From Bacillaceae bacterium (GTDB lineage Bacteria > Bacillota > Bacilli > JACDOE01): a stretch of 64,000 nucleotides of DNA. Under the pieces are notes generated by a model. It saw nothing but the letters and a program-made list of their open reading frames with translations, did no database searches and was not told where the DNA came from. The stretch covers positions 36,400-100,399 of the forward strand of contig JACDOE010000010.1 of NCBI GenBank assembly GCA_017656255.1. The letters are read 5' to 3'. Each line of letters starts with the position of its first letter. Positions within the stretch are counted from its first letter, which is position 1. This document shows, in pieces, positions 12,819 through 46,877 of this stretch. Made by a program: the position numbers and the translations under genes.

Positions 12819-12823
12819 CGGTA

Positions 12824-13534: not shown

Positions 13535-13540
13535 ATCACT

Positions 13541-13891
13541 TTACGCCTCTACCTCTACTGTAACCTTCGGGTCATGTTGATTCCCTTCTTTTTTTATTAC
13601 AACCCCCTTGTATTCCCACCCTTCTTCAATACATTTTAAGAGCCAACTGTATTTTGGAGGAACGACCCCTATACTAAAATTATCTTTTTCTTTTTTTACT
13701 TCCATGACCGGCAATGTATCATCATTTCTTAAGATAATAGACACTTCATCATTCACAGAAACATTTCTCCACACTGCTTTTTGATTCTCATTAACAATTA
13801 ATAAAATTGTAACTTTTTCACCGCATCTATTTACTGTTTTTCCAGTTCCTCCTCCAAAACCACCAAATGATGAAAAGCCACCACTTCCCAT
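13541..13891 (-). CDS. Small protein with glycine-rich N-terminus (unknown function)
   Basis: 116 aa; N-terminal GSGGFSSFGGFGGG; strong RBS (TAAGGAGGA); first or second gene of the block B operon. Confidence 0.4.
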   Translation of the reverse strand: MGSGGFSSFGGFGGGTGKTVNRCGEKVTILLIVNENQKAVWRNVSVNDEVSIILRNDDTLPVMEVKKEKDNFSIGVVPPKYSWLLKCIEEGWEYKGVVIKKEGNQHDPKVTVEVEA

Positions 13892-14024
13892 ATAAATCCT
13901 CCTTACTAGTTATTTTTTTTTTTGCAATCTTTATAATACTCCAAAACTATTTATATTTAAATTAAATGAAATCTCATTTTGATCACTTCTTTTGTAAATT
14001 GTCTAATGTGCTTAGAATATGTTA

Positions 14025-14450
14025 TTATTTCTCTAGACCAAATTCTCTTTTTAATTTATTAAAGTCATATTCTTTTATTTCGATTGGGATACTAAGGTTC
14101 TTAAGTTTTGACATCAAATCGCTTTTATTAACAACAGGTTTGTCCTCGTAAACAATTGCGAATATCAATTTAAAATTATTTATTGAAGCACTGTCTAAAT
14201 TTTTAGCTGTCTGATATAACGATTCAATAACATTACGAGTTAACTTACCTCGTTTATTATATTTTATCTCAAATCCATAAGTTGAATTATCAGTTTTACT
14301 AATACCATCAATTTCAATTAACTTATCAGAAGATTTAAATGCCATGTGTCTCTGAATAGGAATTTTAAATTCTTGTTCAAGTTTCCTAAACACCAAATCT
14401 TCAGCTAAAAAGTATTGCATTTTGGGATCAACAGTCACTTTGGAAGGCAT
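14025..14450 (-). CDS. Hypothetical protein, possible PD-(D/E)xK-like fold
   Basis: 141 aa; spaced D...E-x-K residues (IEIDG, FEIKY); weak RBS; in-frame open sequence upstream without an ATG suggests possible truncation. Confidence 0.3.
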   Translation of the reverse strand: MPSKVTVDPKMQYFLAEDLVFRKLEQEFKIPIQRHMAFKSSDKLIEIDGISKTDNSTYGFEIKYNKRGKLTRNVIESLYQTAKNLDSASINNFKLIFAIVYEDKPVVNKSDLMSKLKNLSIPIEIKEYDFNKLKREFGLEK

Positions 14451-15283
14451 GTCTAACGTACCCGCTTTATCCTCTTCAATATTATTATCACTAGAAGATT
14501 CTTCAAGCTCTGCTTCTGCTTTCTTTCTTTGTGAATCACTAGTTAATTTTAAGAAATTCCCTTCATCCTTAAAATCACTTGGCGCATATAATTTGGTATG
14601 ATAAAAATCACAAGTCTATAAAATGTAAATAAAACAAGTAAAGGGAAAATTACTATGAAACACACAAGGAACCATTTTTGAGAAACATTTAATTCCGAAC
14701 TAAATTGAAGTACTAATGCTGCTATTCCATAAATTAGTGATATAAATAATGCAATGATACCTAAGGGGTTCTTTGTAAAACCTGATGCACTTCTCGTGAA
14801 TTCTATTATTATCGCTCACCTTCCTTGTAAAAATTTTAAAATGATGCCAACGTTACTCATTCTTAATACCAATCCAAATCATATCCGTGGACAAAAATGG
14901 CTGGAAAATATAAAACATGTCTGAGTATCAAAAAATTAATCTTTTAATATAACATTCTTCTCTTTTTTCTCATTAACTCCTCCTAGCTTTTGTGCACACC
15001 AATATATTAAAAAACAATCTTCAAAACTATACTTACTCCTTTTAGATCAAAGATCAAAAAATCCCTAACAAAAAAATTAGTGTTTATTCTCAATTGTATT
15101 TCGGTAAAAAAACAGATAATCCCTTTTAGGACAAATAAAAAATAATTAGTAAGGATATCACTCTATACTATATACTTATCTGAATTAATAGGTTTAATTG
15201 GTTTTATAATTATCTTCTTTTAGCTATTTGAAACCCCCCCTGACCCAGCACCACACCAGCATTCTTCCGACATCGCTTCGTGT

Positions 15284-15561
15284 TCACAACCTCTTGACGA
15301 TATGCGCCACCAGGCGAAGGTTATGTTCGATCAGCATATTTCGCGCCTCAACATCTCCCTGTTCCATCAAGCGTAAGTATTTCTCCTCGTCTTCTTCCGA
15401 CAGTGGCTGGGGAAAGGCATTGTTCTTGACGTAGGAGACGAACAGAATCAGTTCTTTGTACAGAAGCGCCAGTAACCCGAGCAGTCCAGACACCCGATCC
15501 CACCTCCAGGAATAGTGCTTCATTTATGCCTATTCCCTTTTGGGCTTGTTTGTGTCTGTAC
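15284..15561 (-). pseudogene. sigK: Orphan sigK 5' fragment (36-bp leader plus codons 1-77, then VKRL-stop)
   Basis: 15292-15561 matches 8654-8925 of the intact sigK with 4 mismatches, all synonymous or in the leader; homology ends at codon 77/78. Confidence 0.85.
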
Positions 15562-15742
15562 CGGAGATTTGTTTTTGCTCTTTTGTTAAAAACTGTTTAA
15601 GCATTTTTAACACTAGCGTTCTCAAATAAATTTAATGTTTCTGTCCTTCACTTCTTTTTTCTACAAGTAAACAAACATCCCGCAATACCTTAATAGTAAT
15701 GCGGGATATTATGAGAACCTTTTAGACATACCCTTCTTTACC

Positions 15743-18346: not shown

Positions 18347-19618
18347 TTACTTTTCACCTCTTGCTTTAACCAAAACTCCCTGAGTGGTATAAACCCCGTC
18401 TACACAATCGCCAATACTTAAATGATGAATCTCAAAATCTCGTTCATCAAAAATCTCACTTATCCATTGTTTAAATTCATTTGTCCCCATTTCCCATTTA
18501 TGATCTTCATGCCGATATTCATCCAGGGAATAATACTTATTAAAATCATGATTTGGAGTCGTTATAATAATGGATTCAAAATGAATGTCATCAAGAATTG
18601 TTAAAATTAGTTTTTTAGCCTCATCCTTCTCCATGTGTTCAATGACTTCTGTAAGGATGACATCAACTAATTCCCCATTGTAATCTTCAATAAAATCCTC
18701 AATGGATCCATAAGTTAATATATTTTCAATACCCCTTTTTTTAATTCTTGCATCCAGCGAACGAATGATATCTTCATCAATGTCAATGGCATAATAGTAT
18801 TTGTCACCTATACTTTCGGAGAAAAGAAAGGCATAATAACCTTCCCCACATCCAACATCAACAATTGGTTTGTTGAAGGGTAATAACTTTTTTATCGCTT
18901 CTCTTCTTTGGTGAGCTGTATGTCCGTAAGAAAAGTTTATGTCATACCTTTGTGTTTCTTCCAGGCTTTCTTTAAATTTTGAAAATAATTTCCTGCTGGT
19001 AAGTATGTTTCGTGCAAACAGATACCTTATAAAAAACGGAGCATCCAGGACTTTAATTTGATTAACATACTTTTCAATCAAACTATCTGTAACATCAAGG
19101 TATTCGTTACCTATTAAAGATAAAAATAAAAACAATAGATTAGCTGTATTCAATAAATCATAAATACTTTTGTTCGTTTTGATTTTAATTGAATAGCTCT
19201 TGTGAGATTGATGAATCATTTCGATAGAGAAATCCTCAAAATGTTTGCTAAAAAAATCTATATATCTTGGTAGTGTGATATGAACCATATTCACAAATAA
19301 TTCATTTTCATATCCTTCAAGATCATTATCATACCGGTTTTTGATTGTGGAATTAAAGAATTCTGTCATTGCGTTTAATGGAAAAAGAGGTGTATTATAT
19401 CTTGAAACATTTAGATATTCAAAGCTTTCTTCTTTATGTTGCTTGTAAGATATCTCGTTGTCAGCGTCCTTAAAATATATATTGTAGGTTTGATCATCAG
19501 AATACCAGCCAAACGCAATTCCCTGTCTGACTGTACGCAACATCATGCCTGAAGCTGGATTTTTGCGTATTAAAAAAGAAAAGTGCGGATTCGTTGATTT
19601 TAACTGAACAATAGCCAT
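18347..19618 (-). CDS. hen1: Hen1-like RNA 3'-terminal ribose 2'-O-methyltransferase
   Basis: 423 aa; C-terminal class I MTase motif (VDVGCGEGYY); stop abuts the pnkp start. Confidence 0.7.
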   Translation of the reverse strand: MAIVQLKSTNPHFSFLIRKNPASGMMLRTVRQGIAFGWYSDDQTYNIYFKDADNEISYKQHKEESFEYLNVSRYNTPLFPLNAMTEFFNSTIKNRYDNDLEGYENELFVNMVHITLPRYIDFFSKHFEDFSIEMIHQSHKSYSIKIKTNKSIYDLLNTANLLFLFLSLIGNEYLDVTDSLIEKYVNQIKVLDAPFFIRYLFARNILTSRKLFSKFKESLEETQRYDINFSYGHTAHQRREAIKKLLPFNKPIVDVGCGEGYYAFLFSESIGDKYYYAIDIDEDIIRSLDARIKKRGIENILTYGSIEDFIEDYNGELVDVILTEVIEHMEKDEAKKLILTILDDIHFESIIITTPNHDFNKYYSLDEYRHEDHKWEMGTNEFKQWISEIFDERDFEIHHLSIGDCVDGVYTTQGVLVKARGEK

Positions 19619-19773
19619 CTACTTTCACTCCTGTTATTTCCCTCAATCATTTTCCAATAAACCAATAAACTTTAATTGCTATACTAACCTGATTCCCAGT
19701 TCAAAAGAATAATCAAATAAAATATGAAAAGAGGAAAAATGTAGTCCCCTTTTCCTAGTGCTTGGTAAAAATA

Positions 19774-21105
19774 TCATGCTTTTGAAGATATACAACACAA
19801 CATAAAGAGACCAATTATGAATCCATATAAGATTAAAATCCAGTAGCATAAACTTAACACATACTTTCTTTTGATTCGTCGTCTCATCTGAATCCAATAT
19901 TCAATTATAGAGGCTTTAAGTAATATTCGGACATAAAAAAATTGATATATCATAACTAGCAATATAATCCCCGCTGTCATTATTGTCGCAAGTAACAACT
20001 TGAACCAAAAAGAAACAGTTTGAATATCAATCATCATAATAAATAGTAATATGCTGCCCCCTGTTCCTAATGCAATCAGTAACAGCATAGATAAAGAAGC
20101 AATAATTCTTTTAGATAGGGAAATATGGTCAATATTTAACGTTTCCTCCAAAACTTCTTTGTTCTCCTCATGATTTTTTAGTTCGTCAAGATTTTCAATA
20201 CCTCTTAAATCAAAAAAGTCTCTAAACTTATCTAAAAACCACTTAGCTATATCATGTGCATCTTTTTCAAGTTCTTCAGAACGAAGAGATAATTGGATAT
20301 ACTTTTCATCTTTATCTGTCGTGTCTTCAATAACACCTTTAACTCCCTCTCCCCTTCTATCAATCTGGATATACATAAGTAATTGATCCTCTTTAATTTG
20401 AAAAATTATCTGAATTTCATCCATCTTATCCCATAGAATTTCCTTTATCGGTTTAAAATCGTATATAAACATAAAAGGTTTCTCATCACTATAGGTATAA
20501 AAAGAGTTGAAATTCATTCTCATATTATCAATAGACACATGGGATTCTGTTTTTAAATTCTTTTTATATCCTTGCCAATTTTTAAACTGATACAAAATGT
20601 AAGATAATGAAAAACCAAGTTCTTTCTGAAGAGCTTCAATTACTTTTTGTACCCATGGATGAGGGAAAACATTAATTTCGTTATATTCCTTCCAATTTGG
20701 CCACTTGTCAAGGGAGCATATCGTGTCAATCGATATATGAAAGAATCCTTTAGAAACCAAATCCTTATCTCCATTTTCTGATTCTTTTACATTGTGAACG
20801 GCAATAGGGGTATCATAGGGAACCTGAAAAGAAAAGGAAAATTCTAATTTTTCACCAATTTCAATTTTACGTTCTTTTGCAATCGTAGTTTTTAACAGTG
20901 GGACACGAGAATATATTAAGTCGTCACGGGTATCCATTTTTGTTGTAATCTGAATGACTAATTCCTTAATTATTCTTTCCTGTATTCCTCCCTGAACTAT
21001 TACTTTGCCCGATACTTGTTCACCGGGGCGGTAATAATTTTTATCCAGAATAGTCTTGATTGCTATATCTCCATGTCTTAGCCTCCAAAGCTTTTTTCTT
21101 AACAT
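19774..21105 (-). CDS. Spo0M-like (arrestin-like) protein fused to a C-terminal multi-pass membrane domain
   Basis: N-terminus DKNYYRPGEQVSGKVIVQGG resembles Spo0M; the C-terminal ~130 aa are strongly hydrophobic. Confidence 0.45.
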   Translation of the reverse strand: MLRKKLWRLRHGDIAIKTILDKNYYRPGEQVSGKVIVQGGIQERIIKELVIQITTKMDTRDDLIYSRVPLLKTTIAKERKIEIGEKLEFSFSFQVPYDTPIAVHNVKESENGDKDLVSKGFFHISIDTICSLDKWPNWKEYNEINVFPHPWVQKVIEALQKELGFSLSYILYQFKNWQGYKKNLKTESHVSIDNMRMNFNSFYTYSDEKPFMFIYDFKPIKEILWDKMDEIQIIFQIKEDQLLMYIQIDRRGEGVKGVIEDTTDKDEKYIQLSLRSEELEKDAHDIAKWFLDKFRDFFDLRGIENLDELKNHEENKEVLEETLNIDHISLSKRIIASLSMLLLIALGTGGSILLFIMMIDIQTVSFWFKLLLATIMTAGIILLVMIYQFFYVRILLKASIIEYWIQMRRRIKRKYVLSLCYWILILYGFIIGLFMLCCISSKA

Positions 21106-21664
21106 ATTTTCACCTACTCCTTAAAAGCCTTTTATCAATTTCATATTCTACAAATTTCAACAATTACCTTTAAGTAGAAAAGGCATAAAGAAAGGAGATA
21201 AATATTGCCGCTAATCCCCATGGCTAAATAATGGGCCAAAAGAGAGTAAGATTGCAGATTGTCCTTATTATTATTTTGATCTGGCCAGTACATATCAGGG
21301 TGCTCTATAAGATATTCCTTTTAATCTTTGTAGTCGAATCTTTTGATACCCCCCATCTGAACTCTCGGAAGTGACAATTTCGATGTTAGCACCTAAATCT
21401 TTTAAACGGTTATATAATTATATCCCTTGATAACATTCTTAGAGCTATTTCAAATGTCCCCGATGTCGTTTATAATATGACTACCTTTTCTTATAAACTT
21501 CTTTTCTTCTGCTTTTTGTAGAATATGTTTTAGGTTAACTTCATAATATAAAAACTTGCCCCCAAACAAATTTTTCTCTAATGGTCTATTCCAGGTAATA
21601 CATAATCTGAAAAAGGCCAACCTTTTGTAGGAAAGCCAAACATATAAATACCCTCCCTAAAAAA

Positions 21665-22810
21665 TCAAAAAGATAAACCTTTAAAACCATGAGAGGTGGA
21701 AATGGCCAGGATTCTGTCAGATTCATCCACCTCATGTTTAAGTTGTGTGATAGCACTCCAGATCGTGGCTGACGACGTTTCCAAATACAATCCATATCTC
21801 CCTAATTCCTGTTGACTTTGCAACGCATTTTGAAGGTTAACGACTTTGACCAGGCCCTTTGTATCAGTAATCGTCTTTTTTAACTGATACGTTACCGTTG
21901 ACCCACTGATAGAAGGAAGGCCATCAGATACACCTGCAAAATGATTTCTGTAATCTTCACCTTTTATGACACGCGTTAATCTGGGAAACGGTTCCACCGC
22001 TACAAATTTTGGGATTTCATTAATCCATCCAAGTTCTCTGGCGTCCCTGAAACCGCGATATATGCCCCAGATTAAATCGCCTCGAGAAGCTGGCGCTACA
22101 ATAATACTCGGCAGCGTCTCTTTCAGTTCTTCCATAATTTCATAGGCAATCGTTTTATATCCTTCAACCCCAAACACATGACTGCCGACGGGTGGGTTAA
22201 TGAAATTTGTTGCAGGATACCACCCTTTGTTTGAAACGGCTTTCTCCATACAGTCCCAGCGACTCAATGAAGTTTGCGTATAAATCATTTTGGCTCCGGT
22301 CATTTTAATCGCTTTAGAGTATGTCTTCTGAATGGCATCCGTAGCGATAATGACACATTTCAGACCAGAAGCAGCACTATAACTGGCTATCGACACGCCG
22401 GCATTGCCTGATGAAGCGGCCACCACTGTCGAATACCCCATGTTCTTCGCTCTTGCCATGATGAGAGGACTCATTCGATCTTTGTGAGAACCGGTCGGAT
22501 TTTGAGCTTCATTTTTGATCCAGACATGGCGAACACCGATTTGTCTGGCTAAATCCCTTAATTCCATGATAGGAGTCGATCCTTCTCCCAATGTAGGAAA
22601 AGAACGATAAGGCAATAAATCGGTGTATCTTTGTAAGCCTCTTTGTGACCGGTCAATATTAACTTTTTGATAATCATACAGAGCAGTCAAACTGGCCGGA
22701 TACCCTTCTTCCAGACAAAGAGGACATCCTTTGAAATAATCTTTGACTTCAAAGATAGAATGACATCGAATGCATTGGAAACCGATCATATTTTTGTTTA
22801 ATTGATACAT
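21665..22810 (-). CDS. PLP-dependent threonine synthase-like enzyme with N-terminal zinc ribbon
   Basis: PLP-lysine motif TGSHKDR, glycine-rich SSGNAG loop, N-terminal CxxC...CxxC; start set at the internal Met with a GGGGA RBS. Confidence 0.55.
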   Translation of the reverse strand: MYQLNKNMIGFQCIRCHSIFEVKDYFKGCPLCLEEGYPASLTALYDYQKVNIDRSQRGLQRYTDLLPYRSFPTLGEGSTPIMELRDLARQIGVRHVWIKNEAQNPTGSHKDRMSPLIMARAKNMGYSTVVAASSGNAGVSIASYSAASGLKCVIIATDAIQKTYSKAIKMTGAKMIYTQTSLSRWDCMEKAVSNKGWYPATNFINPPVGSHVFGVEGYKTIAYEIMEELKETLPSIIVAPASRGDLIWGIYRGFRDARELGWINEIPKFVAVEPFPRLTRVIKGEDYRNHFAGVSDGLPSISGSTVTYQLKKTITDTKGLVKVVNLQNALQSQQELGRYGLYLETSSATIWSAITQLKHEVDESDRILAISTSHGFKGLSF

Positions 22811-23513: not shown

Positions 23514-25544
23514 TCACATAAACCGTTTCATCAATTGTAACCGGTTCTTGACCCCGGTCTTTTTAAGAATGCTGCTGACATGCTTTTTCACCGTAATCTC
23601 CGTGACATGCAGCTGTTTCGCTATCTCTTTATTGGAGAGCTCCTGCAGGATCAGTTTGACAATTTCTTTTTCCCGTTCCGTCAATTGAAACTGTTCAGCC
23701 AGCTCATGCAGATTCTGATCCTCAGCAAACAGGTGGGACGTGATCTTCTTAAGATAGTGAGCCAGTTTCGGCCCGCGCAAATCCAGCACATAAGTGGGAG
23801 AGGGCTGATCAGGACCGTAGTCATAGTGAGTGGCACCATCCACCTGTTGATATCCCATTCGTTTGTTAAGTTCCTGATAAAAAGGGATCGGCGTAGATAC
23901 AATAATGCGTCCACCGGTGAGAAGAAGAGGAAAGAGGTTATACAGGAGAAACGAGCGGATATCCGCATTGGTCGGATCAAGAACATCCAGCATCCGGATA
24001 AACCACCCGGCACACCGATCTTCTCGGACCGCATATTCCTTTTCTTCATCCGGGCTTAGACGGCTAAAATACGCTCTCGAGACAGGCTCCGTTTTCAGGT
24101 GAGGCAGAGTGCGTTCATTGATGGGGACAATGATGGACAGACCCAGCGTCTCACCCTGCCTGTTTTTAACCAGTTTTGCCGAATCATACCCCATTTTTTT
24201 CACATAATCGGCACCGATTAATTCCGATTCCTTTTTGTTATGCTGGGCTGTAACATAATAATGATACATTTCATCGGTTTCCCGGTTATAAAAATGGGCA
24301 CTTGTTTCGATCGCCTGTTTTTTTCGCCTGTCAAAGTACTCTTCTATCTCGTGAAAATTGTGGGGCCCTACGTGTTCAATATACTTGTCATCATCCAGCG
24401 CCCCCTGGAAAAAGGTGGATTGAATAACCCTGTCCCCCATATGGTAAAAGAACTGGGCCACATCCCAGTAGGATACAGATTGTTCGTTAATTTTGTTGTA
24501 ATAATAAGTCATGGCTCGCTGGCGCAAAGCCTGGCACCGATCCGGATTTCGCTGTTGCAATTCAACTTTAATGGCATCACCGATCAATTCATGCAACATC
24601 CAGCCACGGCTGTTCTTTTTAATAAAGGAGAGTGAGACGAATGCTTTAAATTGAGAGGCGGAAATTTCCTGCTCCAGCAGAAATGAAAGAGAGGATTGAT
24701 CGAAGTGTCCCATGACGGCCGCCGCTTCCAGCATATCATGCCACTCCGGTTCCGATACTTCTTCCAGCCATTTGTGGGTAAGCTCCGTTAAGATATCTAT
24801 TTTTTCATCTGCTTCCGGGAGAGATGACAGATTTTCCTCCCCGGCCATCACGGCCAGCGACAGCGTGAGCGGGTGTCCCTGGCTGAACAGCCACAGATTA
24901 CGAATCGTCCTGTCTTCTTTAATGTCATAGCGATTTAAATACTGGCGGGTTTGCGAACGGGTAAACTCCTTAATCTCAAGCTTTTGGACCATCCTTCGCC
25001 ACGCCGGCGATTGCGACCAGGTTCCGGACAACGGAAACCGGCCGGCAAGGATGATCTTCACCTGCCCGGGGAGTTGTTCCAGAAAGAACTCTCGAATCCA
25101 GCGATCCATATCACCCATTTTTTCATAGGTGTCAATGGCGATAACCACCCGGTTATCCCGGACCAGCTTTTCCAGCATATTGACCACGTAGGTCAGACTA
25201 CTGGAATGGTTTGAAAGTGGCATGTTCAACTGGCTCTCCAGCGCAGCCAGCAGATTGTGGGCCAGTGTAAATGGTGAGTGCAGAAAGTCCTGGCTGTCCA
25301 GCATCAGGAAAATCACATCTTTTTCACGTTCAGCCACCCTCTGAAAGGCGTGAAGCAGATACGTCTTGCCGGTTCCACCGGTTCCGTACAGATTGAGAAC
25401 ACGTGGGGTTTCTTCACGTTGTTGAAGAAAACGGCGAAATACATCCAATTCTTTTTCCCGTCCGACAAAGAAATGCTCTTCCATCCTGCTTACAGCCGAA
25501 CCCATTTTTCCCACTTGCTTGTTCGGCTCTTTAGAAACTTCCAT
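23514..25544 (-). CDS. ATPase-domain (STAND/MalT-like) LuxR-family transcriptional regulator
   Basis: N-terminal Walker A (GTGGTGKT); C-terminal LuxR HTH (LTEREKEIVKL...NKEIAKQLHVTEITVKKH). Confidence 0.65.
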   Translation of the reverse strand: MEVSKEPNKQVGKMGSAVSRMEEHFFVGREKELDVFRRFLQQREETPRVLNLYGTGGTGKTYLLHAFQRVAEREKDVIFLMLDSQDFLHSPFTLAHNLLAALESQLNMPLSNHSSSLTYVVNMLEKLVRDNRVVIAIDTYEKMGDMDRWIREFFLEQLPGQVKIILAGRFPLSGTWSQSPAWRRMVQKLEIKEFTRSQTRQYLNRYDIKEDRTIRNLWLFSQGHPLTLSLAVMAGEENLSSLPEADEKIDILTELTHKWLEEVSEPEWHDMLEAAAVMGHFDQSSLSFLLEQEISASQFKAFVSLSFIKKNSRGWMLHELIGDAIKVELQQRNPDRCQALRQRAMTYYYNKINEQSVSYWDVAQFFYHMGDRVIQSTFFQGALDDDKYIEHVGPHNFHEIEEYFDRRKKQAIETSAHFYNRETDEMYHYYVTAQHNKKESELIGADYVKKMGYDSAKLVKNRQGETLGLSIIVPINERTLPHLKTEPVSRAYFSRLSPDEEKEYAVREDRCAGWFIRMLDVLDPTNADIRSFLLYNLFPLLLTGGRIIVSTPIPFYQELNKRMGYQQVDGATHYDYGPDQPSPTYVLDLRGPKLAHYLKKITSHLFAEDQNLHELAEQFQLTEREKEIVKLILQELSNKEIAKQLHVTEITVKKHVSSILKKTGVKNRLQLMKRFM

Positions 25545-30276: not shown

Positions 30277-32463
30277 TTGGTCGAAAGGATTGGAACAATG
30301 TCGGAAAACACGAACGAAGCTATCTTTTCTCTCGATATCGGAACCAGAAGTGTTGTCGGATTGATTCTGGAACCGGAGGACAACGGAAAAATGAAAGTGG
30401 CCGGATGTGAAGTGGTCGAACATGAGGACCGCTCCATGCTGGATGGACAGATTCACGACGTCGTCGCCGTATCTAAAGTCATTCGGCAGGTCAAGGAAAA
30501 ACTGGAGAAAAACCACGGCCCTCTTCACAAAGTAGCGGTGGCGGCAGCCGGGCGCTCCCTGAAAACCATCCGGGCCTCGGTGGAAAAAGAAATTAACGGC
30601 ATGCCGATACTAACCCGGGATGACATCCTTGCCCTGGAACTATCGGCGGTCCAGGATGCTCAGAAACAGCTGGCTGCAGAACAGGATACCCACGACCAGC
30701 ACGAATACTACTGCGTCGGCTACAGTGTGGTTCATTACTATCTGGATCATGAGGTTATCGGGAACTTAATCGATCAACGCGGCGAAACGGCAAGCGTCGA
30801 AGTCATCGCTACCTTTTTGCCCCGGGTGGTGGTCGATTCTTTGCTCGCTGCCCTGAAACGGGCCGATCTGGAAATGAACGCTCTGACTCTGGAACCGATC
30901 GCGGCCATCAATGTCCTCATCCCCTCCACCATGCGTAAATTAAATATTGCGCTGGTGGACATCGGGGCCGGCACCTCCGACATTGCCATCGCGGAACACG
31001 GCACGATTACCGCCTATGGCATGGTTCCCAGTGCCGGCGATGAAATTACAGAGGCACTCAGTGAAGCGCTGCTGCTCGACTTCACGATGGCGGAACAGCT
31101 GAAGCGGAACCTGAATGATCCGAAGCAGGAAGAATATAAAGTCACCGACATCCTCGGCTTCGAACAAACGATGAGCAAGACGGACATTCTGGATCAAATC
31201 GACGAACCGATCGACCGTCTGGCCCAATTAATCAGTGATAAAATCCTGGAATTGAACGGCAGGGCGCCCCAGGCCGTCATGTTGATCGGAGGCGGAAGCC
31301 AGATTCCCCGGCTGACAGATAAAATCGCGAAAAAAACGGGACTCTCACCGAACCGGGTGGCGGTGCGCGGTGCCGATGCCCTGCAGAATACCATTCACAA
31401 ACACCGGAAAATCAAAGGGCCTGAATTTGTCACACCGGTTGGTATCGCCGTGGCAGCGACGCTTCATCCGGTCAAATATTTGACAGTCACGGTCAATGAC
31501 AATATTCTGCGTATTTTTGACCTGAAAGAACTGACCATCGGCGATGCCCTGCTGCATGAAGGCATTGATATCAAAAAACTGCACGGACGTCCGGGATTGG
31601 CTGTAACAATCCAGGTCAACGGCAAACTTAAATTTATTCCCGGCGGGCACGGTACGCCCCCGTCCATTCTTTTGAACGGTGAACCTGCCCATCTGGATAC
31701 GCCCATTTCCGAAGGGGACAGTATCACGGTCATCAAGGGCGAAGATGGTGCGGACGCCAGCGCCAGCGTCAAGGATGTGATCGATGAATTGACGACACTC
31801 GATATCACCATCGACGGCCGTCCCTATTCCCTGGCACCTCTCATTCGGGTCAACGGGGAACCGGCCACACTGGAAACTTCACTGACAGACCGGGACGAAC
31901 TGGATATCCACCTCCCTTCCACGCTGGAAGAAGTAGTGGATGAATCGGAGCTTCTGAGCTGGGATGATATTATTGCCAGCTACACGTACCGTTTAAACGG
32001 ATCAGAAAAACAGTTGAAATGGCAAAAGGCCACGATCTATGTGAACGGAAGAAAAGCCGGACGCAAAACACCGGTCAAAACCGGTGACCGGATTACGATT
32101 GAACCGCAACCATCTGGTCAGCCGTTATTGAAAGATGTGATCCCGGCGGACCAACTTTCCGGGATGATGACACCGGTCACTTTTAACGGTGAAAAGGTGA
32201 ACATCCACGACCTGCAGTACAGCATCATCATGAACGGTGAGAAGGTCTCTCCTGATGAGCCGCTGGTTGACGGGGCGACGATCCGGATTGAACGTCATGA
32301 AGACCAGGGGCTCATTTTCAGCGATGTTTTCCGTTACGTTGAAGTGGATACCGGGCAACCGCCCGGCAAAAAAAAGCTGGTGATTCTCGTCAACGGGGAA
32401 CCCGCTGATTTAAACACCCCGATCAAGGCCGGCGATCATCTGGAAATGAGATGGGAAGCCTGA
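30277..32463 (+). CDS. Actin-like ATPase domain protein (FtsA/PilM/EutJ-like) with C-terminal ThiS/MoaD-like repeats
   Basis: N-terminal SLDIGTRSVVGLI and VAVAAAGRSLKT phosphate-loop-like motifs; at least five C-terminal repeats of VNGE-x(n)-GD-x-I type. Confidence 0.45.
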   Translation: MVERIGTMSENTNEAIFSLDIGTRSVVGLILEPEDNGKMKVAGCEVVEHEDRSMLDGQIHDVVAVSKVIRQVKEKLEKNHGPLHKVAVAAAGRSLKTIRASVEKEINGMPILTRDDILALELSAVQDAQKQLAAEQDTHDQHEYYCVGYSVVHYYLDHEVIGNLIDQRGETASVEVIATFLPRVVVDSLLAALKRADLEMNALTLEPIAAINVLIPSTMRKLNIALVDIGAGTSDIAIAEHGTITAYGMVPSAGDEITEALSEALLLDFTMAEQLKRNLNDPKQEEYKVTDILGFEQTMSKTDILDQIDEPIDRLAQLISDKILELNGRAPQAVMLIGGGSQIPRLTDKIAKKTGLSPNRVAVRGADALQNTIHKHRKIKGPEFVTPVGIAVAATLHPVKYLTVTVNDNILRIFDLKELTIGDALLHEGIDIKKLHGRPGLAVTIQVNGKLKFIPGGHGTPPSILLNGEPAHLDTPISEGDSITVIKGEDGADASASVKDVIDELTTLDITIDGRPYSLAPLIRVNGEPATLETSLTDRDELDIHLPSTLEEVVDESELLSWDDIIASYTYRLNGSEKQLKWQKATIYVNGRKAGRKTPVKTGDRITIEPQPSGQPLLKDVIPADQLSGMMTPVTFNGEKVNIHDLQYSIIMNGEKVSPDEPLVDGATIRIERHEDQGLIFSDVFRYVEVDTGQPPGKKKLVILVNGEPADLNTPIKAGDHLEMRWEA

Positions 32464-35924: not shown

Positions 35925-36815
35925 TCAGCTGACCGCATCGGTAATCATCTTGTGGTGAAACACCTGCTTCAATGCCGCCATCTCTTCGTCCGTCAGAGGG
36001 ACCAGGGGCAGACGAACCGATCCAACCTGAACCCCTGTCAACTCCAGCGCCGCCTTGACCGGAGTCGGACTCGGCGCGGCAAACAGAGCTTTCATCATGG
36101 GGAGCAGTTCCCGATGCAGACGGGCTGCCTCCTGTACCTCACCGTTAAAATAGGCTGATACCATTTGTTTCATTTCGTTACCAATCACGTGAGACGCCAC
36201 GGATACCACACCCCGACCCCCGATGGACAGGACGGGAAGTGTCATGGAATCGTCTCCGCTGTACAGGCTGAAATCAGCATCGGTTTGTTGAATGATCTCT
36301 GCCATCGCGTCCAAATTGCCACTCGCTTCTTTAACCGCAACGATATTTTCAATCCGGGACAGCCGCACGATGGTCTCGACAGAGATGTTGACGACACTTC
36401 TGCCCGGGATATTGTAGAGCATCACCGGAAGTGTTGTTGATTCTGCAATCGCCTTGAAGTGCTGATACAACCCTTCCTGTGACGGTTTGTTGTAATAGGG
36501 AGCCACCAGCATAATCCCATCAACGCCGCAACGCTCCGCTTCTCTTGTCAATGCAATCGATTCCGCCGTATTGTAAGAACCGGTTCCGGCAATAACCGGG
36601 ACCCGTCCGTCAACAACTTCCACCACATGCCTGAATAACTGGATTTTCTCATCCTTCGAGAGTGTCGGAGATTCCCCCGTTGTACCGGCTACGACAAGTC
36701 CGTCGGACCCATTGCTGATCAAATGGCGGATCAGCTTACTGGTTGCCTCGAAATCCACTTCATTGTTCTGATCAAACGGTGTTACCATTGCCGTCAATAC
36801 CTGACCAAAGTTCAT
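35925..36815 (-). CDS. dapA: 4-hydroxy-tetrahydrodipicolinate synthase
   Basis: 296 aa; TPF, GTTGE and catalytic-Lys region (AVKEASG) conserved. Confidence 0.9.
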   Translation of the reverse strand: MNFGQVLTAMVTPFDQNNEVDFEATSKLIRHLISNGSDGLVVAGTTGESPTLSKDEKIQLFRHVVEVVDGRVPVIAGTGSYNTAESIALTREAERCGVDGIMLVAPYYNKPSQEGLYQHFKAIAESTTLPVMLYNIPGRSVVNISVETIVRLSRIENIVAVKEASGNLDAMAEIIQQTDADFSLYSGDDSMTLPVLSIGGRGVVSVASHVIGNEMKQMVSAYFNGEVQEAARLHRELLPMMKALFAAPSPTPVKAALELTGVQVGSVRLPLVPLTDEEMAALKQVFHHKMITDAVS

Positions 36816-36894: not shown

Positions 36895-37140
36895 AAACGC
36901 AAAAAAGCAACAGCGGAGGGTTTCCGTTGTTGCTTTAGAAACAATACCGGATCGTTTCCTTAGCGTGAGATAGCCCTCCATATAGCAACAAGACTATATG
37001 ACAGTTCTGCACTTATTCAGTGCAAAACCAGCTGCAGGAATCATGAGCTTCCCGAAGCTTCGGCAAATCCCCCTTTCCACAACCTTCACCGGAGCTCATT
37101 CTCCTCTGATTGTGTACTGATGGTCTTTGCGCCTCTATCC
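36895..37140 (-). ncRNA. Lysine riboswitch (L-box) with terminator, in the dapA leader
   Basis: Minus strand contains AGAGGCGC, UGCACUGAAUAAGUGCAG and AUGGAGGGCUAUCUC, matching conserved L-box segments of the B. subtilis lysC leader from memory, followed by a hairpin plus U-run (36899-36936). Confidence 0.65.
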
Positions 37141-37237
37141 TCACTCCATATATATTACTGAAGCAGGAAATATTGAATTTTCCTGTACTATATCAAATAA
37201 ATTTTTTTCTTGCAAGGTGTTTGTCACATTTTTTTGT

Positions 37238-37281
37238 ATTTTTATAAAATCAGGCCGTTACTCCGCAAGGAGTAACAGCCT
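37238..37281 (-). terminator. Intrinsic terminator after MCP gene 1
   Basis: Hairpin GGCUGUUACUCC-UUGC-GGAGUAACGGCC followed by a U-rich tract. Confidence 0.6.
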
Positions 37282-37296
37282 TAAATGTAAGATCTG

Positions 37297-39033
37297 TTAC
37301 ATTTTGAATCGGGACAGGGACTGATTCAATTCTTCCGCCATCTGGGCCAGGTTCTCGGCCATGCTGTTGATCTCCTGCATGGACGCGTTCTGCTGTTCCA
37401 TCGAGGCAGACAGTTCTTCCGTTCCCGCGGATGATTCTTCCGTCACGGCAGCGATGTCTTCCACCGCTTTCACACCCTGTTCCACTCTTCCCGTAATCTG
37501 TTCCGTTGCCATCGACACCTGCTGGATCTTGCCGCCCATCTCCTGGATGATTGCCGCAATCTCTTCGAAGGTCTTGCCGTTGGTTTCGATTACTTCCGAA
37601 CCTTCTTTGACCTGATCCACCGCTTCCTGCATCACCGTACCGGCTTCTTCTGCTTCCTTCAGCACCGAATGAACGATATCGGCGATCTCATTGGTAGATT
37701 TACCCGCCTGTTCTGCCAGTTTCCGTACTTCATCAGCCACCACGGCAAACCCTCTTCCCTGTTCACCGGCACGGGCTGCTTCAATCGCTGCATTCAGTGC
37801 CAGCAGGTTGGTCTGCTCGGCTATTTCATTGATCACTTTCAAGATTTCACTGATCTCTTTCGACTTTTCACTCAGCGTAAACACCACATTGGCCGATTGT
37901 GACACTTTCTGTTCGATGATTTGCATCTGTTCGATGGACTGATGGGCACTTTCCGCTCCCTGCCTGGATGCTTCATCTCCCCGGCGGGAACTTTCTTCCA
38001 TCTCCGTGGCACTGGCATTAATCTGTTTGATCTCTTCGTCGATCTGCTGCATGATCTCCAGCGCACTGCCTGCCTGCTCCGCCTGTGTGGTAGCACCTGC
38101 CGCCAGTTCTTCGGTGGTGGCAGATACCTGTTCGATTCCCTGGGTGATCTGGTTGGACGAAGCCGTCAGTTCCTCACTGGAGCCCGTCACCTTCTCAGAA
38201 ATGGTGCTGGCATCCTTGATCAGGGATCTCAGGTTATCCACCATGGCGTTCATGGCCTCGGACAGCTGACCGATCTCATCTTTCGAACGCACTTTCATCT
38301 GCGAAATCGCCAGGTTACCGTCCGCCAGCTGTTTCATTTTCTCCGTAATCTGTACGATCGGCGTACCCATGCGTCCGGCAAACATATAAATCACCACGAT
38401 ACCCACCACCAGTGCAATACCGAGGGTCAGCATCAACACCTGCAGAATACGGGTCGCTCCGCTGTTATAGTCCTCCATGTAAGAACCGGCACTGATCACC
38501 CATCCCCAGTGAGGGTCCAGTTCGCTGTAAGAAATTTTCGGCGCCAGTTTATCGGGGTTATCGGGAAGCGGCCACTCGTAATAGGTGAAACCTCCGCCTT
38601 CCTGAGCCTTTTTAATAAAATCACGAATAAAATAAAAACCGTTTTGTGTCTGGAAATCCCACATGTTTTTCCCTTCTACTGCGGGATGAGCCAGGGTATT
38701 CCCTTTTTGATCCACAACGGTAAAGTACCCGCGGGCCCCCAGATCGATCGTCTTATCGACCGGGCGCTTGCCCTCACTGTTTTTTTCACCGAGAATCTGT
38801 ACTTTGACCCGCTCCTGAGCTTCTTCGAGGGTCAGGGTTCCTTTCTGTACTTCCTCATCCAGCGTGGCAATCATTTTTTTAACCATCCGTACATTATTCT
38901 GGAGTCCCGTCGCTCCGGCATCATTCAGCTCATTCTCGGCGATCTGATAGGCTATCACGCCGATGATGAGACCGGGTATCACCAGTAAAGCAAGGCTGAT
39001 CAAAATAAGTTTCGCTTTAATGTTAAGTTTCAT
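37297..39033 (-). CDS. Methyl-accepting chemotaxis protein 1
   Basis: 578 aa; periplasmic sensor domain, two TM segments, HAMP and conserved MCP signalling domain ([34 protein letters not shown]). Confidence 0.85.
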
Positions 39034-39074
39034 TGTCCTACTCCCATCCTTTTAATCTGTCTTTGTATATGAAT

Positions 39075-39235
39075 ATAAAAAGACTATTTCAACCATATGA
39101 AATAGCCTCCGTTACCTGTAGATGCACGTTCCCTGAAGCTGGTTCTCTCTTCGGTAACCCGGCATCTGTTCGATCTGATTTCAGACACCTGGGCTTTGCG
39201 CCCCCATCTCTCAATGAGTTTGCCGTTTCGGAGTT
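39075..39235 (-). ncRNA. c-di-GMP-I (GEMM) riboswitch with terminator-like expression platform, leader of MCP gene 1
   Basis: Minus strand ACGGCAAACUCAUUGAGAGAUGGGGGCGCAAAGCC...GCCGGGUUACCGAAG matches the Vc2 c-di-GMP-I aptamer core from memory; followed by hairpin CUAUUUCA-N6-UGAAAUAG plus U-run. Confidence 0.75.
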
Positions 39236-39479
39236 CATTATGTATTTGTGACAAAAACATGAAAGTTTTTCCTGTAAAACAATTAATAATATACGACAAT
39301 TTTTTATATTTTTCAACATCTGCAGTGTAAAATTGCAGTTAAAAAGTACTATTTCCTTTGTACCAGTAGGTGATCAGGGAATTCGCAAAAAATTATTTTG
39401 CACGTCGTTAAATAGTCTGTCTGAAACAAAATAAAAATGCCGCCACTCCCGAAGGAGTAACGGCATGATCTGACCGCTG

Positions 39480-41219
39480 TTACATTTTGAATCGGGACAG
39501 GGATTGATTCAATTCTTCCGCCATCTGGGCCAGGTTCTCGGCCATGCTGTTGATCTCCTGCATGGACGCGTTCTGCTGTTCCATCGAGGCAGACAGTTCT
39601 TCCGTTCCCGCGGATGATTCTTCCGTCACGGCAGCGATGTCTTCCACCGCTTTCACACCCTGTTCCACTCTTCCCGTAATCTGTTCCGTTGCCATCGACA
39701 CCTGCTGGATCTTGCCGCCCATCTCCTGGATGATTGCCGCAATCTCTTCGAAGGTCTTGCCGTTGGTTTCGATTACTTCCGAACCTTCTTTGACCTGATC
39801 CACCGCTTCCTGCATCACCGTACCGGCTTCTTCTGCTTCCTTCAGCACCGAATGAACGATATCGGCGATCTCATTGGTAGATTTACCCGCCTGTTCTGCC
39901 AGTTTCCGTACTTCATCAGCCACCACGGCAAACCCTCTTCCCTGTTCACCGGCACGGGCTGCTTCAATCGCTGCATTCAGTGCCAGCAGGTTGGTCTGCT
40001 CGGCTATTTCATTGATCACTTTCAAGATTTCACTGATCTCTTTCGACTTTTCACTCAGCGTAAACACCACATTGGCCGATTGTGACACTTTCTGTTCGAT
40101 GATTTGCATCTGTTCGATGGACTGATGGGCACTTTCCGCTCCCTGCCTGGATGCTTCATCTCCCCGGCGGGAACTTTCTTCCATCTCCGTGGCACTGGCA
40201 TTAATCTGTTTGATCTCTTCGTCGATCTGCTGCATGATCTCCAGCGCACTGCCTGCCTGCTCCGCCTGTGTGGTAGCACCTGCCGCCAGTTCTTCGGTGG
40301 TGGCAGATACCTGTTCGATTCCCTGGGTGATCTGGTTGGACGAAGCCGTCAGTTCCTCACTGGAGCCCGTCACCTTCTCAGAAATGGTGCTGGCATCCTT
40401 GATCAGGGATCTCAGGTTATCCACCATGGCGTTCATGGCCTCGGACAGCTGACCGATCTCATCTTTCGAACGCACCTTCATCTGCGAAATCGCCAGGTTA
40501 CCGTCCGCCAGCTGTTTCATTCTCTCCGTAATCTGTACGATCGGCGTACCCATGCGTCCGGCAAACAGGTAAATGGCCACGATACCTACCACCAGCGCAA
40601 TGCCGAGGGTCAGCATCAATACCTGCAGAATACGGGTTGCTCCGCTGTTATAATCTTTCATATAGGAACCGGCAGCCACTATCCAACCCCAGTGGGGATC
40701 CAGTTCCGTGTATGCAATCTTGGGCGCAAGAGAGTCCGGGTCATCCGGAAGCGGCCAGTCATAATAAGTGAATCCTCCGCCCTCCTCCGCCTTCTTTACC
40801 ATATCACGGGCAAAGTAGTATCCGTCTTCTGTTTTTGTATCCCACAAACTCTCTCCCTCAAGCAGTGGATGTGCAATAAGGACTGCTTTTCGCGACATAA
40901 CAAAATAGTAACCGTTTTCACCAATGTCAATCGTTTTATCGATCGGGCGCTTGCCCTCACTGTTCATTTCTCCCAGAATCTGTACCTTCACCCGCTCCTG
41001 GGCTTCTTCGAGGGTCAGGGTTCCTTTCTGTACTTCCTCATCCAGGGCGGCAATCATCTTTTTTACCAGGCGGACATCATTTTTCAATCCCGTAGCCCCG
41101 GCGTTGTTCAATTCGTCCTTGGCAATCTGAAAGGCCGTCATCCCGATGATCAGGCCGGGGACCGCCAGCAAAGCAAGGCTGATTAAGATAAGCTTGGCTT
41201 TAATGTTGATGAGTTTCAT
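39480..41219 (-). CDS. Methyl-accepting chemotaxis protein 2 (tandem paralog)
   Basis: 579 aa; divergent sensor domain; 3' ~1 kb nearly identical to MCP gene 1. Confidence 0.85.
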
Positions 41220-41254
41220 ATGTAGCTTCCCATCCTTCTTTTCTTTTTGATGAT

Positions 41255-41410
41255 TATAAAAAGGCTATTTCAACCCGTTGAAATAGCCTTCGTTACCTGC
41301 TGTTGATGACTCTTGATGAGGATTTCTCACGGTAACCCGGCATCTTTCATCTACTTCACAGACACCAGGGCTTTGCGCCCCCATCTTTCGATGAGTTTGC
41401 CTTTTCTAAA
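41255..41410 (-). ncRNA. c-di-GMP-I (GEMM) riboswitch with terminator-like expression platform, leader of MCP gene 2
   Basis: Minus strand AAGGCAAACUCAUCGAAAGAUGGGGGCGCAAAGCC...GCCGGGUUACCGUGAG; followed by perfect hairpin GGCUAUUUCAAC-CG-GUUGAAAUAGCC plus U-run. Confidence 0.75.
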
Positions 41411-41577
41411 TCCTGTTGAAACGACATATCGTAAGATATTCCCGATTCATTTATACTAAAATATACGACAATTTTTGTTATTTTTCAACAATTATTGTGT
41501 CGAGTGGGATAATAAAGGTTTATATCCTATGATAAATTATTATAGCCCCGATCACCACGGTTGGGCCGGCCGGGACT

Positions 41578-44910: not shown

Positions 44911-45699
44911 CTATTTCTGAAGGGGGCGCAGGACCGGTTGTTCCTTATCGGCATTACTCACAAATTTGTAGATTGAGATTTCAACACGGCGATTCAGCGC
45001 TCTTCCCTCTTTCGTTTCATTGGTTGCAATCGGACGGAATTCCCCGTAGCCTTCTGCATGAAACCGGCCGGGATTTAACTGATCATTTTGCAACAGGATT
45101 TTCATAAAATTGAGTGCCCGTTCGGTGCTGAGATCCCAGTTGGATTCAAACTGAGCAGTACGAATGGGACGATTGTCCGTATGACCGGCCACCACCACTT
45201 CATAGCCCGGATATTCAACCAGCATTTCCGAAAGGGCGACGCCGAGTTGTCTGGCTCCGGGATTGACCTCGGCACTTCCCGAGTCAAACAGGGCATGGTC
45301 GCGAATGGTGATCATCAGCAGGTTTTTGTTCAGGCTCGTTTCAATTTCCGATTCCAGATGATTCTCTTGAATGTAGCGATCAACCCTTTTTTTCAATTCT
45401 TCCAGATTTTTTAATTCCGCCCCGATGTTTTTATCCGTATCGGAACCCCGGTGTTCCGTCGACTCCGTCGGTTGATCCACTTCAAGCGGAAAGGCACTGG
45501 TATACTCCAAAATGCCTGAACCACTATGGAAGGCAGAATTCATGGCCAGTATCAACCGGTCATATTTCTTCTGATCAATGTTACTGACAGCAAAGAGAAC
45601 AATGAACAGAGCCAGCAGCAGGGTCAGCAGATCGGCATATGGAATAAGCCAGGTTTCATCAATATGCTCTTCCTCATGCTGTTTGCGCTTCTTCGGCAT
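44911..45699 (-). CDS. motB: Flagellar motor stator protein MotB (OmpA-like C-terminus)
   Basis: N-terminal TM with WLIPYADLLTLLLALF and C-terminal OmpA-like peptidoglycan-binding domain; overlaps the motA stop. Confidence 0.8.
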   Translation of the reverse strand: MPKKRKQHEEEHIDETWLIPYADLLTLLLALFIVLFAVSNIDQKKYDRLILAMNSAFHSGSGILEYTSAFPLEVDQPTESTEHRGSDTDKNIGAELKNLEELKKRVDRYIQENHLESEIETSLNKNLLMITIRDHALFDSGSAEVNPGARQLGVALSEMLVEYPGYEVVVAGHTDNRPIRTAQFESNWDLSTERALNFMKILLQNDQLNPGRFHAEGYGEFRPIATNETKEGRALNRRVEISIYKFVSNADKEQPVLRPLQK

Positions 45700-46498
45700 T
45701 TGCCGGATCCTCCTGTTGAGTGCCTGTATCCTCCTGCACCTGTTTCAATTCGGAGCTAGAAACAAATACAGACAATTTTTGTTCAATATTCGTTGGCGAC
45801 ATCCCCAGTTGGATGGACAACAATCCTTCCACCATCAACAGTTTGGTTTCAACTTCCTGTCTGGACAAACGTTTAAGTTTGTTGGCAATGGGATGCCACA
45901 GGACATATCCGGTAAAAATACCGAGGAGCGTTGCGACAAACGCGGCAGCAATCGAATGCCCGAGGACTTCAATGTCATCCAGATTTCCCAGGGCAGCAAT
46001 CAGGCCGACAACAGCCCCAAGTACCCCCAGTGTCGGTGCATATGTACCAGCCTGTGTAAAAATCAGGGCTCCAGCTTTATGTCTCTCTTCGATGGCTTCG
46101 ATCTTTTCCAGCAACACATCGCGGACAAAGTCGTTTTCACTTCCGTCAATAATCATCATCAGCCCGTCTTTTAAAAAGGGATCGTCCAGATCTTCCACTT
46201 TGTTTTCCAGGGATAAAAGGCCTTCGCGTCTGGCATGTCCGGCCAGGTCGACAAATAATTTGATCAATTCCGGTTTGGAGGGAATATCCGGTTTCTTAAA
46301 CACAATTTTGATCAATTTGGGGAATTTTTTTAATTCTTCCAGCGGAAAACCGATAAACAGAGAAGCAGCTGTTCCGACGATAATAATTAAAAATGCAGCC
46401 GGGTTAATCAGTGCGGCGAGGGAGGCGCCTTTTAACACCATTCCCAGTCCCACTGCAATAAGTCCCAGTGTAATCCCGATCCATGTTGATCTTTCCAT
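45674..46498 (-). CDS. motA: Flagellar motor stator protein MotA
   Basis: Close match to B. subtilis MotA across the length (from memory), e.g. IFTQAGTYAPTLGVLGAV and AAAFVATLLGIFTGYVLWHP; start set at MERSTWIG. Confidence 0.85.
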   Translation of the reverse strand: MERSTWIGITLGLIAVGLGMVLKGASLAALINPAAFLIIIVGTAASLFIGFPLEELKKFPKLIKIVFKKPDIPSKPELIKLFVDLAGHARREGLLSLENKVEDLDDPFLKDGLMMIIDGSENDFVRDVLLEKIEAIEERHKAGALIFTQAGTYAPTLGVLGAVVGLIAALGNLDDIEVLGHSIAAAFVATLLGIFTGYVLWHPIANKLKRLSRQEVETKLLMVEGLLSIQLGMSPTNIEQKLSVFVSSSELKQVQEDTGTQQEDPANAEEAQTA

Positions 46499-46877
46499 GA
46501 TTGCCACTCCCTTTCGGTCCATGGTCCTTGTTGCGTTCTACATGTTTCGATTTATTTTTTAAGATTATATCATTAATTGGTCAAAACTACCAAGTTTTTT
46601 TACATATCATGACACTGCATTTAATTTTATGTAATAAATTGTCGTATAGATAAATGTTATCCATTTATAGAAAAAGGTCACCGGGGTTCAATGGTTGTCG
46701 TGGAAGGCAGAGTTCGACCGAAGGAGTGTCTCCGAATTAAAAGGGGGACCCGTCCTGGAGAATTTCTCTGTTATACGCCGATTTAGACTCGAATATGAGG
46801 CGACGGGTTGAGAGCTGATCTTCCGTTTTCCGGAACACCTGACGACTGTTTCTGTCACATCTTCACCCATCCCCTGT

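Follow-up and report, generated by a model that had tools for sequence, protein, structure and literature searches.

Tandem c-di-GMP-I riboswitch–chemoreceptor cassettes with signaling halves homogenized by gene conversion

We analyzed a 64,000-nt stretch of a Bacillaceae metagenome-assembled genome (MAG; contig JACDOE010000010.1, positions 36,400 to 100,399), which we refer to as the window. It carries two genes for methyl-accepting chemotaxis proteins (MCPs), denoted A and B, arranged head to tail on the minus strand, each behind its own cyclic di-GMP (c-di-GMP)-I riboswitch aptamer. An old tandem duplication specific to this lineage gave rise to the two cassettes. Genes A and B have since undergone repeated gene conversion, and the latest event left a 999-nt tract that is almost perfectly identical. 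We combine these findings with a proposed direction of control, in which c-di-GMP turns both receptors off, into a single reading to which we assign a probability of roughly 0.65. The source organism (GC content ∼49%, NCBI label "MAG: Bacillaceae bacterium") lies outside the Bacillus cereus group.

Two cassettes and a converted signaling half

Open reading frames (ORFs) and Pfam domains bear out the tandem MCP genes of the original prediction, which had been made from the sequence letters. Gene A (37297–39033(−), 578 aa, NCBI MBO8173001.1) and gene B (39480–41219(−), 579 aa, NCBI MBO8173002.1) encode proteins with the same domain order, sCache_2, HAMP, and MCPsignal (Pfam E-values of 4.9e-44, 4e-14, and 1.9e-44, respectively), in which sCache_2 sits between two transmembrane segments (TM1 and TM2) read from hydrophobic stretches of the translations. 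The converted tract begins at codon ∼249 and ends 3 nt beyond the stop codon (37294–38292(−) in A, 39477–40475(−) in B), covering the second half of HAMP and the signaling domain, and is identical at 998 of 999 positions. Aligned 2183 nt apart, the copies agree at every position of 37322–38292 (971 nt); the sole mismatch, at position 37321, is a synonymous CAG/CAA difference in codon 572. The near-identical segments had originally been placed at 37297–38284 and 39480–40467, which is right but slightly short at both ends. The sensors have diverged, as had also been claimed (74% nucleotide identity).

We estimated synonymous divergence (dS) between A and B by the Nei–Gojobori method for each codon segment. 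The sensor (codons 32–197) had a dS of 1.42, with 2.6 in its sub-region of codons 93–197, and TM1 had a dS of 0.78; values were 0.30 for codons 56–92, 0.21 for codons 198–248, and only 0.004 for codons 249–579. The 5′ boundary of the tract is graded, with dS climbing from 0.004 through 0.05, 0.15–0.29, and 0.5 to >1.5. A more than 300-fold difference in dS within one gene pair requires sequence exchange, and the patches of intermediate dS (codons 56–92 and 198–248) imply more than one such event.

These data refute the alternative without conversion, in which the identity would come from a whole gene duplicated recently or from strong purifying selection acting on the signaling domain. MCP signaling domains are highly conserved proteins, which speaks for selection, but selection on the protein leaves synonymous differences in place and so does not account for a dS of 1.42 beside one of 0.004. 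A recent duplication would have left the sensor, the leader spacers, and the flanks identical, whereas they are 74%, 49%, and 61% identical. The earlier suggestion of "recent duplication or ongoing gene conversion" therefore holds for conversion and fails for recent duplication, given dS values of 1.4 versus 0.004 and saturated spacers.

The duplicated unit is larger than the genes (37244–39318 vs. 39431–41490; 87.7% identical by blastn). Read on the coding strand, it consists of a promoter, the aptamer, a ∼40-nt spacer, the motif GGUAAC, a hairpin followed by a U-run, a ribosome-binding site (RBS), the ATG, the MCP gene, and a gene-end terminator. Identity between the two copies alternates sharply along this unit: 93% in the promoter, 76% in the aptamer, 49% in the spacer, 85% in the leader terminator, 47% in the RBS region, 74% in the sensor, 94% from TM2 to the start of HAMP, 99.9% in the 999-nt tract, and 61% in the 3′ flank. 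Filler segments are near random identity, so the duplication must be old and the RNA elements that are still similar must have been held by selection.

The most divergent stretch of the protein (codons 91–135; nonsynonymous divergence, dN, of 0.46–0.49) lies in a Cache fold that aligns to solved sCache_2 sensors. The nearest solved structures are the sCache_2 entries 2qhk, 4exo, and 4k08, TlpB (3ub6), and PscD (5g4y), and the sensors of A and B are of a kind for which the ligands of solved relatives are small carboxylates or urea. Across the sensor dN/dS is ∼0.12, indicating that both copies have been maintained; the part that forms the ligand pocket (codons ∼93–197) is saturated with substitutions and still under purifying selection. 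These patterns suggest that conversion is tolerated, or even favored, in the module that fits one CheA/CheW array, with two sensor specificities retained, and that in the ligand pocket it is blocked, by divergence or by selection.

Comparison with relatives supports the age and origin of the pair. The N-terminal parts of A and B share 79% amino acid identity and are 56%–62% identical to the other relatives compared; the two are thus mutual closest relatives. We found no relative above 68% amino acid identity (best 62% in GTDB species genomes, best 68% in the protein database), and among matches from a database of 5.8e9 proteins there was no third protein with this C-terminal module. The closest genome, the MAG "Bacilli bacterium 15dZY3.bin.90", has one locus (L018) that shares the lysine riboswitch–dihydrodipicolinate synthase (DHDPS) unit, an M29 peptidase, MotA/MotB, and an FtsA/ThiS-like gene. 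That neighborhood carries a single c-di-GMP-I–MCP cassette in a slightly different slot, which makes the tandem duplication in the window lineage-specific.

Homogenized 3′ halves are not unique to this locus, judging by Campylobacter jejuni Tlp2/Tlp3/Tlp4 (see below) and by two MCP genes of 15dZY3.bin.90. The latter (L005 6430–7347 and L006 6388–7304) are ∼91% identical over 905 nt of the 3′ half, lie on different contigs, and have sensors that cannot be aligned. Separately, we noted two MCP loci of Peribacillus loiseleuriae (L008 and L009), ∼1.2 Mb apart, that are 93.6% identical over 2.4 kb.

Riboswitch leaders and their transcription signals

A covariance-model scan of the whole window against Rfam at the gathering threshold returned three matches, one lysine riboswitch and two c-di-GMP-I aptamers (RF01051, GEMM-I; cut-off 35 bits). 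Aptamer A (39150–39234(−)) scored 46.7 bits (E = 5.4e-6) and aptamer B (41328–41411(−)) 53.3 bits (E = 1.4e-7), in agreement with the original prediction of such an aptamer ahead of each gene. Both are full-length matches on the gene strand (model positions 1–87), and RF01051 is the best match within clan CL00126. The first hairpin carries a GNRA tetraloop in both (GAGA in A, GAAA in B), and a C–G pair of its stem in B is U–G in A, keeping the pairing. Consensus positions retained in both according to the Rfam alignment are the G before GCAAAC, GCAAAGCC, and GGGUUACCG (that is, CAAAG and UUACC), which we take to include the counterparts of the Vc2 ligand contacts G20, A47, and C92, mapped from the Vc2 structure and numbering. 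A G rather than an A at the counterpart of Vc2 position 20 in both aptamers points to c-di-GMP, not cyclic GMP-AMP, as the ligand.

The tetraloop receptor CUAAG...UAUG of the second hairpin is missing from both window aptamers (deletions and low posterior probability at these positions in the Rfam alignments). Its absence is compatible with membership of the class, as PMC11218506 treats aptamers without the receptor as a subtype. In its place stands a helix GGUGUCU/AGAUGCC with tandem G–U pairs (39170–39200; 41350–41375). By eye, the second hairpin of L018 (7835–7865) is receptor-less like those of the window; L021 and L005b carry CUAAG...UAUG.

The association between this riboswitch and MCP genes is conserved. 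Aptamers of the c-di-GMP-I class precede MCP genes at L018 (49.8 bits), L021 (56.8 bits), L005 (50.1 bits), and the Sporanaerobium locus L007 (59.9 bits); six other MCP loci had no c-di-GMP-I aptamer, even at an E-value of 0.1. We initially took L005 for a second tandem riboswitch–MCP pair and rejected this, as the gene after its second aptamer is HD-GYP-like and not an MCP. There, a c-di-GMP-I aptamer (8154–8240) precedes the HD-GYP-like gene (8315–9313) with an expression platform like that of the neighboring MCP leader, a pairing that would amount to riboswitch feedback on c-di-GMP turnover.

Each cassette has a sigma-A-type promoter, TTGAAA-17-TATATT with TTGTCG just upstream of the −10 element (39288–39316(−) in A; 41460–41488(−) in B, with 10/12 matches). 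The stretch from −35 to −10 is 93% identical between the cassettes, against 40%–46% in its flanks, and the motif TTGTCGTAWAWT occurs twice in the window, at these two promoters, where 0.04 occurrences are expected. We rejected sigma-D/sigma-28 as an explanation for the conserved TTGTCGTATAT, which does not match the CCGATAT core of that consensus. The TTGTCG may mark a shared regulator or sigma specificity. The wider motif TTGA[A/T]A-N11-TTGTCGTA[T/A]A[A/T]T is found in the window at 39288–39299(−) and 41460–41471(−), and elsewhere at L005 4944–4955, L021 7671–7682, and L018 4740–4751(−); in another genome it precedes riboswitch–MCP cassettes plus a 7TMR-DISM GGDEF gene.

At the other end of the leaders, the RBS is AAGGATGGGA in both cassettes (39042–39051(−) and 41228–41237(−)), set in a region that is 47% identical. 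Gene B is followed by a terminator (39437–39466(−)) with a 13-bp stem, seven GC pairs, and then TTTTTATTTTG, which divides the two transcription units; the terminator after gene A (37252–37281(−)) is homologous and diverged (61% identity). With its own promoter, leader, and gene-end terminator, each gene is a separate transcription unit. We discarded as mechanical products the ORFs 39089–39319(−) and 39084–39299(−) over leader A, which are absent from leader B, as well as the long antisense ORFs 37921–38988(+) and 40104–41186(+) inside the MCP genes, which were duplicated along with the repeat.

Both leaders end in a hairpin and U-run ahead of the RBS, as originally noted. Leader terminator A (39072–39110(−)) is GGAGGCUAUUUCA-UAUGGU-UGAAAUAGUCUUU followed by UUAUAUU, with 13 pairs (pair probabilities 0.56–1.0), and leader terminator B (41253–41290(−)), likewise of 13 bp, is AAGGCUAUUUCAA-CGGG-UUGAAAUAGCCUU followed by UUUUUAUAAU (pair probabilities 0.94–1.0). 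A terminator scan of a 5-kb region found five sites versus 5.4 in shuffled sequences, i.e., no excess, and the case for the leader hairpins therefore rests on their conservation. The hairpins are 85% identical between A and B, against 47%–49% in the flanking spacers, and they are homologous to hairpins at L018 and L021, two loci of another genome. Changes within them compensate: a base pair is G–U in A and G–C in B, and L021 has lost one nucleotide from each arm (AUUC/GAAU vs. AUUUC/GAAAU in the others).

Next to each terminator stands GGUAAC, complementary to the GUUACC at the 3′ tail of the aptamer. In leader A it occupies 39111–39116(−), immediately adjoining the terminator, and faces GUUACC at 39153–39158; in leader B it lies at 41292–41297(−), 1 nt ahead of the terminator, and faces GUUACC at 41331–41336. 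The resulting helix (helix H) is part of the minimum free energy (MFE) structure of leader B, with a pair probability of 0.52. Since the final pairs of the second hairpin, and also the junction C, fall within the GUUACC tail, helix H and the ligand-bound aptamer fold are predicted to be mutually exclusive. GGTAAC and the terminator core are invariant in both window leaders, L018, and L021, with spacers that vary in sequence and length. As a background used only for the rate of GGTAAC, we scanned metagenome contigs with the pattern GCGCAAAGCC-N20-45-GGTTACCG and obtained 120 loci, none with an MCP neighbor. GGTAAC occurred within the next 150 nt in only five of these 120 unrelated environmental aptamers ending in GGTTACCG, and in none did it adjoin a terminator, a rarity that makes helix H a selected feature of this leader lineage.

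Direction of switching and competing explanations

We folded the leaders by MFE, ensemble, and constrained folding, as full and truncated transcripts, with the aptamer free or blocked. In the mechanism that we propose, the aptamer 3′ strand (GCCGGGUUACC) would pair, in the absence of ligand, with GGUAAC and with GGC at the base of the terminator 5′ arm, hindering closure of the terminator base and allowing read-through transcription. Ligand would lock the 3′ strand in the aptamer, the terminator would close, and transcription would stop, such that high c-di-GMP would mean less of both receptors. We regard c-di-GMP as an OFF signal for both receptors at slightly better than even odds, a preference that derives from the homologous leaders and from the usual antagonism between c-di-GMP and motility. 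In two related leaders helix H overlaps the base of the terminator, and in our models only L021 and L005b clearly follow classical OFF logic: with the aptamer blocked, the terminator pair probability rose in L021 (0.54 to 0.90) and in L005b (0.62 to 0.98). The L021 helix is an unbroken run of 11 pairs (GCCUGGUUACC/GGUAACCGGGC) that occupies the four lowest nucleotides of the terminator 5′ arm, and the MFE structure of L021 has a truncated terminator. Several pairings seen by eye were not used as evidence: AGCUUC/GAGGCU in the spacer of leader A, the aptamer 5′ junction GAAAAGGC with the terminator 5′ arm in leader B, and a possible resemblance between the RBS and the 3′ strand of the first hairpin.

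A number of observations count against our reading. The window terminators form at equilibrium with a mean pair probability of 0.88–0.96 whether the aptamer is free or blocked; blocking it lowers the value in leader A from 0.94 to 0.88, and leader B stays at 0.96 in both states. In both leaders helix H overlaps the terminator by only 3 bp (GGC/GCC), across an internal loop, and leader A has no clear local P1 helix. When the aptamer is enforced in leader A, a long-range pairing CUCCG/CGGAG removes the bottom pairs of the terminator, which would amount to ON logic. The only parallel that has been studied is Bc1, the c-di-GMP-I riboswitch that precedes mcpE in the Bacillus cereus group (PMC11218506; PMC4933901); it was reported to be unresponsive in its native host, and a heterologous B. 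subtilis reporter suggested ON (PMC11218506). Finally, a single MAG contig (103,489 nt) is the source for both the tandem arrangement and the perfect identity, and neither protein was seen elsewhere among ∼15e9 sequences.

With terminators formed in both states at equilibrium, any switch in the window leaders must be kinetic. The original claim that both receptors are c-di-GMP-gated at termination thus stands for its parts, aptamer, hairpin, and U-run; gating itself is no more than plausible, the terminator having a probability of ∼0.9–1.0 in either state. One could propose the reverse switch, with a terminator that forms without ligand and c-di-GMP freeing or recruiting sequences that block closure of its base, so that the receptor rises. 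The ligand-free MFE structures and ensembles of both leaders do hold a complete terminator, and in leader A the enforced aptamer lets CUCCG, 5′ of the aptamer, pair with CGGAG at the terminator base, shortening the hairpin to 9 bp (0.94 to 0.88). Bc1 was likewise reported to turn its reporter on in B. subtilis, with its upstream terminator T1 unfolding with c-di-GMP (PMC11218506). We nevertheless consider an ON switch unlikely: leader B has no such pairing (0.96 in both states), and the homologous L021 and the related L005b behave oppositely. Inducing a receptor at high c-di-GMP would also oppose the usual role of c-di-GMP, which is to repress motility. A further possibility is that the aptamers bind c-di-GMP and the output does not change, the terminator being a constitutive attenuator or needing an extra factor. 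The terminator probability of ∼0.9–1.0 in both modeled states of both leaders fits this view, as does Bc1, which was unresponsive in vitro and in vivo and whose downstream terminator T2 forms at any c-di-GMP level (PMC11218506). We find it doubtful, as the aptamer, GGUAAC, and terminator are conserved between paralogs with saturated spacers and also across genera, which argues that the linkage between them is functional. In addition, equilibrium folding is a poor predictor for kinetically controlled riboswitches.

The identity, or even the second copy, might also be an assembly artifact, with differences collapsed by a short-read graph traversed twice or with a wrong copy number. The locus comes from a single MAG contig, and the only mismatch lies 27 nt from the tract end, within typical k-mer reach of unique sequence, a pattern that would be expected if the interior were unphased. 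Short reads cannot phase differences that lie deep within a repeat of 1 kb, so "perfect" identity may be slightly overstated. An artifact is improbable, however: neither ORF is disrupted, each copy has its own, distinct sensor, leader, promoter, and terminators, and a chimeric join would not yield the graded 5′ boundary or the older patch at codons 56–92. The 91%-identical 3′ half shared by MCP genes on different contigs of another MAG is comparable, and a graph would merge two copies, even in a collapsed assembly, only if they were very similar. The misassembly hazard raised by the original prediction stands: a 999-nt stretch of identity is a real risk for assembly and read mapping, and it can merge the two genes in protein clustering at 90% identity; both are already in one cluster.

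Returning to the leaders, a more speculative joint reading, which we hold at low confidence, is that the invariant GGUAAC beside the terminator, a design common to several MCP leaders of two genera, is the working part of a kinetic switch, that A and B differ in threshold or direction, and that c-di-GMP re-weights the sensors. If so, a kinetic switch would explain the "always terminated" equilibrium appearance of Bc1-type leaders, and the cassettes, whose putative P1 and spacer sequences are not the same, could have different c-di-GMP thresholds or even respond in opposite directions. In that case c-di-GMP would shift the balance between two sensors that feed an otherwise identical signaling module maintained by conversion.

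Genomic surroundings and comparison with known systems

Directly downstream of gene A lies a lysine riboswitch (36963–37145(−), 130.9 bits) ahead of the DHDPS (dapA-like) gene (35925–36815(−)). The locus is bordered by MotB/MotA genes and an FtsA/ThiS/TGS-like gene, an arrangement shared with L018, and a STAND-like AAA_16 + LuxR regulator is located further upstream (window positions 44911–46522(−), 30277–32463(+), and 23514–25544(−) for this set of genes). The MCP cassette occupies a different slot relative to dapA and the M29 peptidase than in L018, pointing to local rearrangement. The window also contains a low-GC island (∼4000–22000; 31%–35% GC vs. ∼49%), which was probably acquired horizontally. 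It encodes a Pnkp/Hen1 RNA-repair pair (15743–18346 and 18347–19618), QueC, an HD/dGTPase-like protein, a fusion of PfkB with nucleoside 2-deoxyribosyltransferase, an Ogg-like glycosylase, a sigma-70 factor, and a Spo0M-like protein; PADLOC matches in the island were weak only.

The locus is a clean example of two known phenomena, with nothing outside known categories. The precedent invoked by the original prediction, riboswitch-controlled MCPs in the B. cereus group, is real (PMC11218506; PMC4933901). Bc1–mcpE shares with the window the aptamer class, the gene class, a long expression platform, and a terminator predicted to form whatever the state of the aptamer. It differs in host, that of the window being uncultured and of ∼49% GC, in the number of cassettes, of which the window has two in tandem, and in its terminators. 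Bc1 has a T1/T2 pair 28 bp apart, whereas scanning and folding revealed one terminator-like hairpin in each window leader and no second terminator of the T1/T2 type. The GGUAAC/GUUACC helix adjoining the terminator is a feature of the window leaders; the main text of PMC11218506 gives no GGUAAC/GGUUACC sequence for comparison. We noted by eye a weak extra hairpin in the L018 spacer (7870–7905; GAAACAC...GUGUUUC, then UUUUU), on which the terminator scan was silent; its 5′ arm resembles the P1 3′ strand, recalling T1 of Bc1. How a c-di-GMP-I aptamer talks to a terminator that it does not overlap was left unresolved by the Bc1 work, and the two cassettes form a natural pair for asking this, with two diverged copies and two cross-genus homologs that mark the leader nucleotides under selection.

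In Clostridioides difficile, c-di-GMP-I OFF riboswitches of the Cd1 type precede motility genes, and the ligand favors an intrinsic terminator. The logic that we propose is the same: bound ligand would promote intrinsic termination before a gene for motility or chemotaxis is reached. The window leaders differ from this type in their platform and in regulating a single gene instead of a flagellar operon, and the OFF direction is only proposed here.

For the coding halves, the closest parallel is C. jejuni, in which Tlp2, Tlp3, and Tlp4 have identical signaling domains and dCache_1 sensors that are only ∼30% identical (PMC9769880). As in the window, these are paralogous MCPs of one genome that combine identical signaling domains with divergent Cache sensors. 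The window sensors, in contrast, are sCache_2 and ∼79% identical over the N-terminal part, and the mosaic of ages is resolved at the nucleotide level; neither a tandem cassette nor a riboswitch leader is described for the Tlps in PMC9769880. Genes A and B thus offer a natural pair for studying how conversion keeps the signaling modules of chemoreceptors uniform while their sensors diverge.

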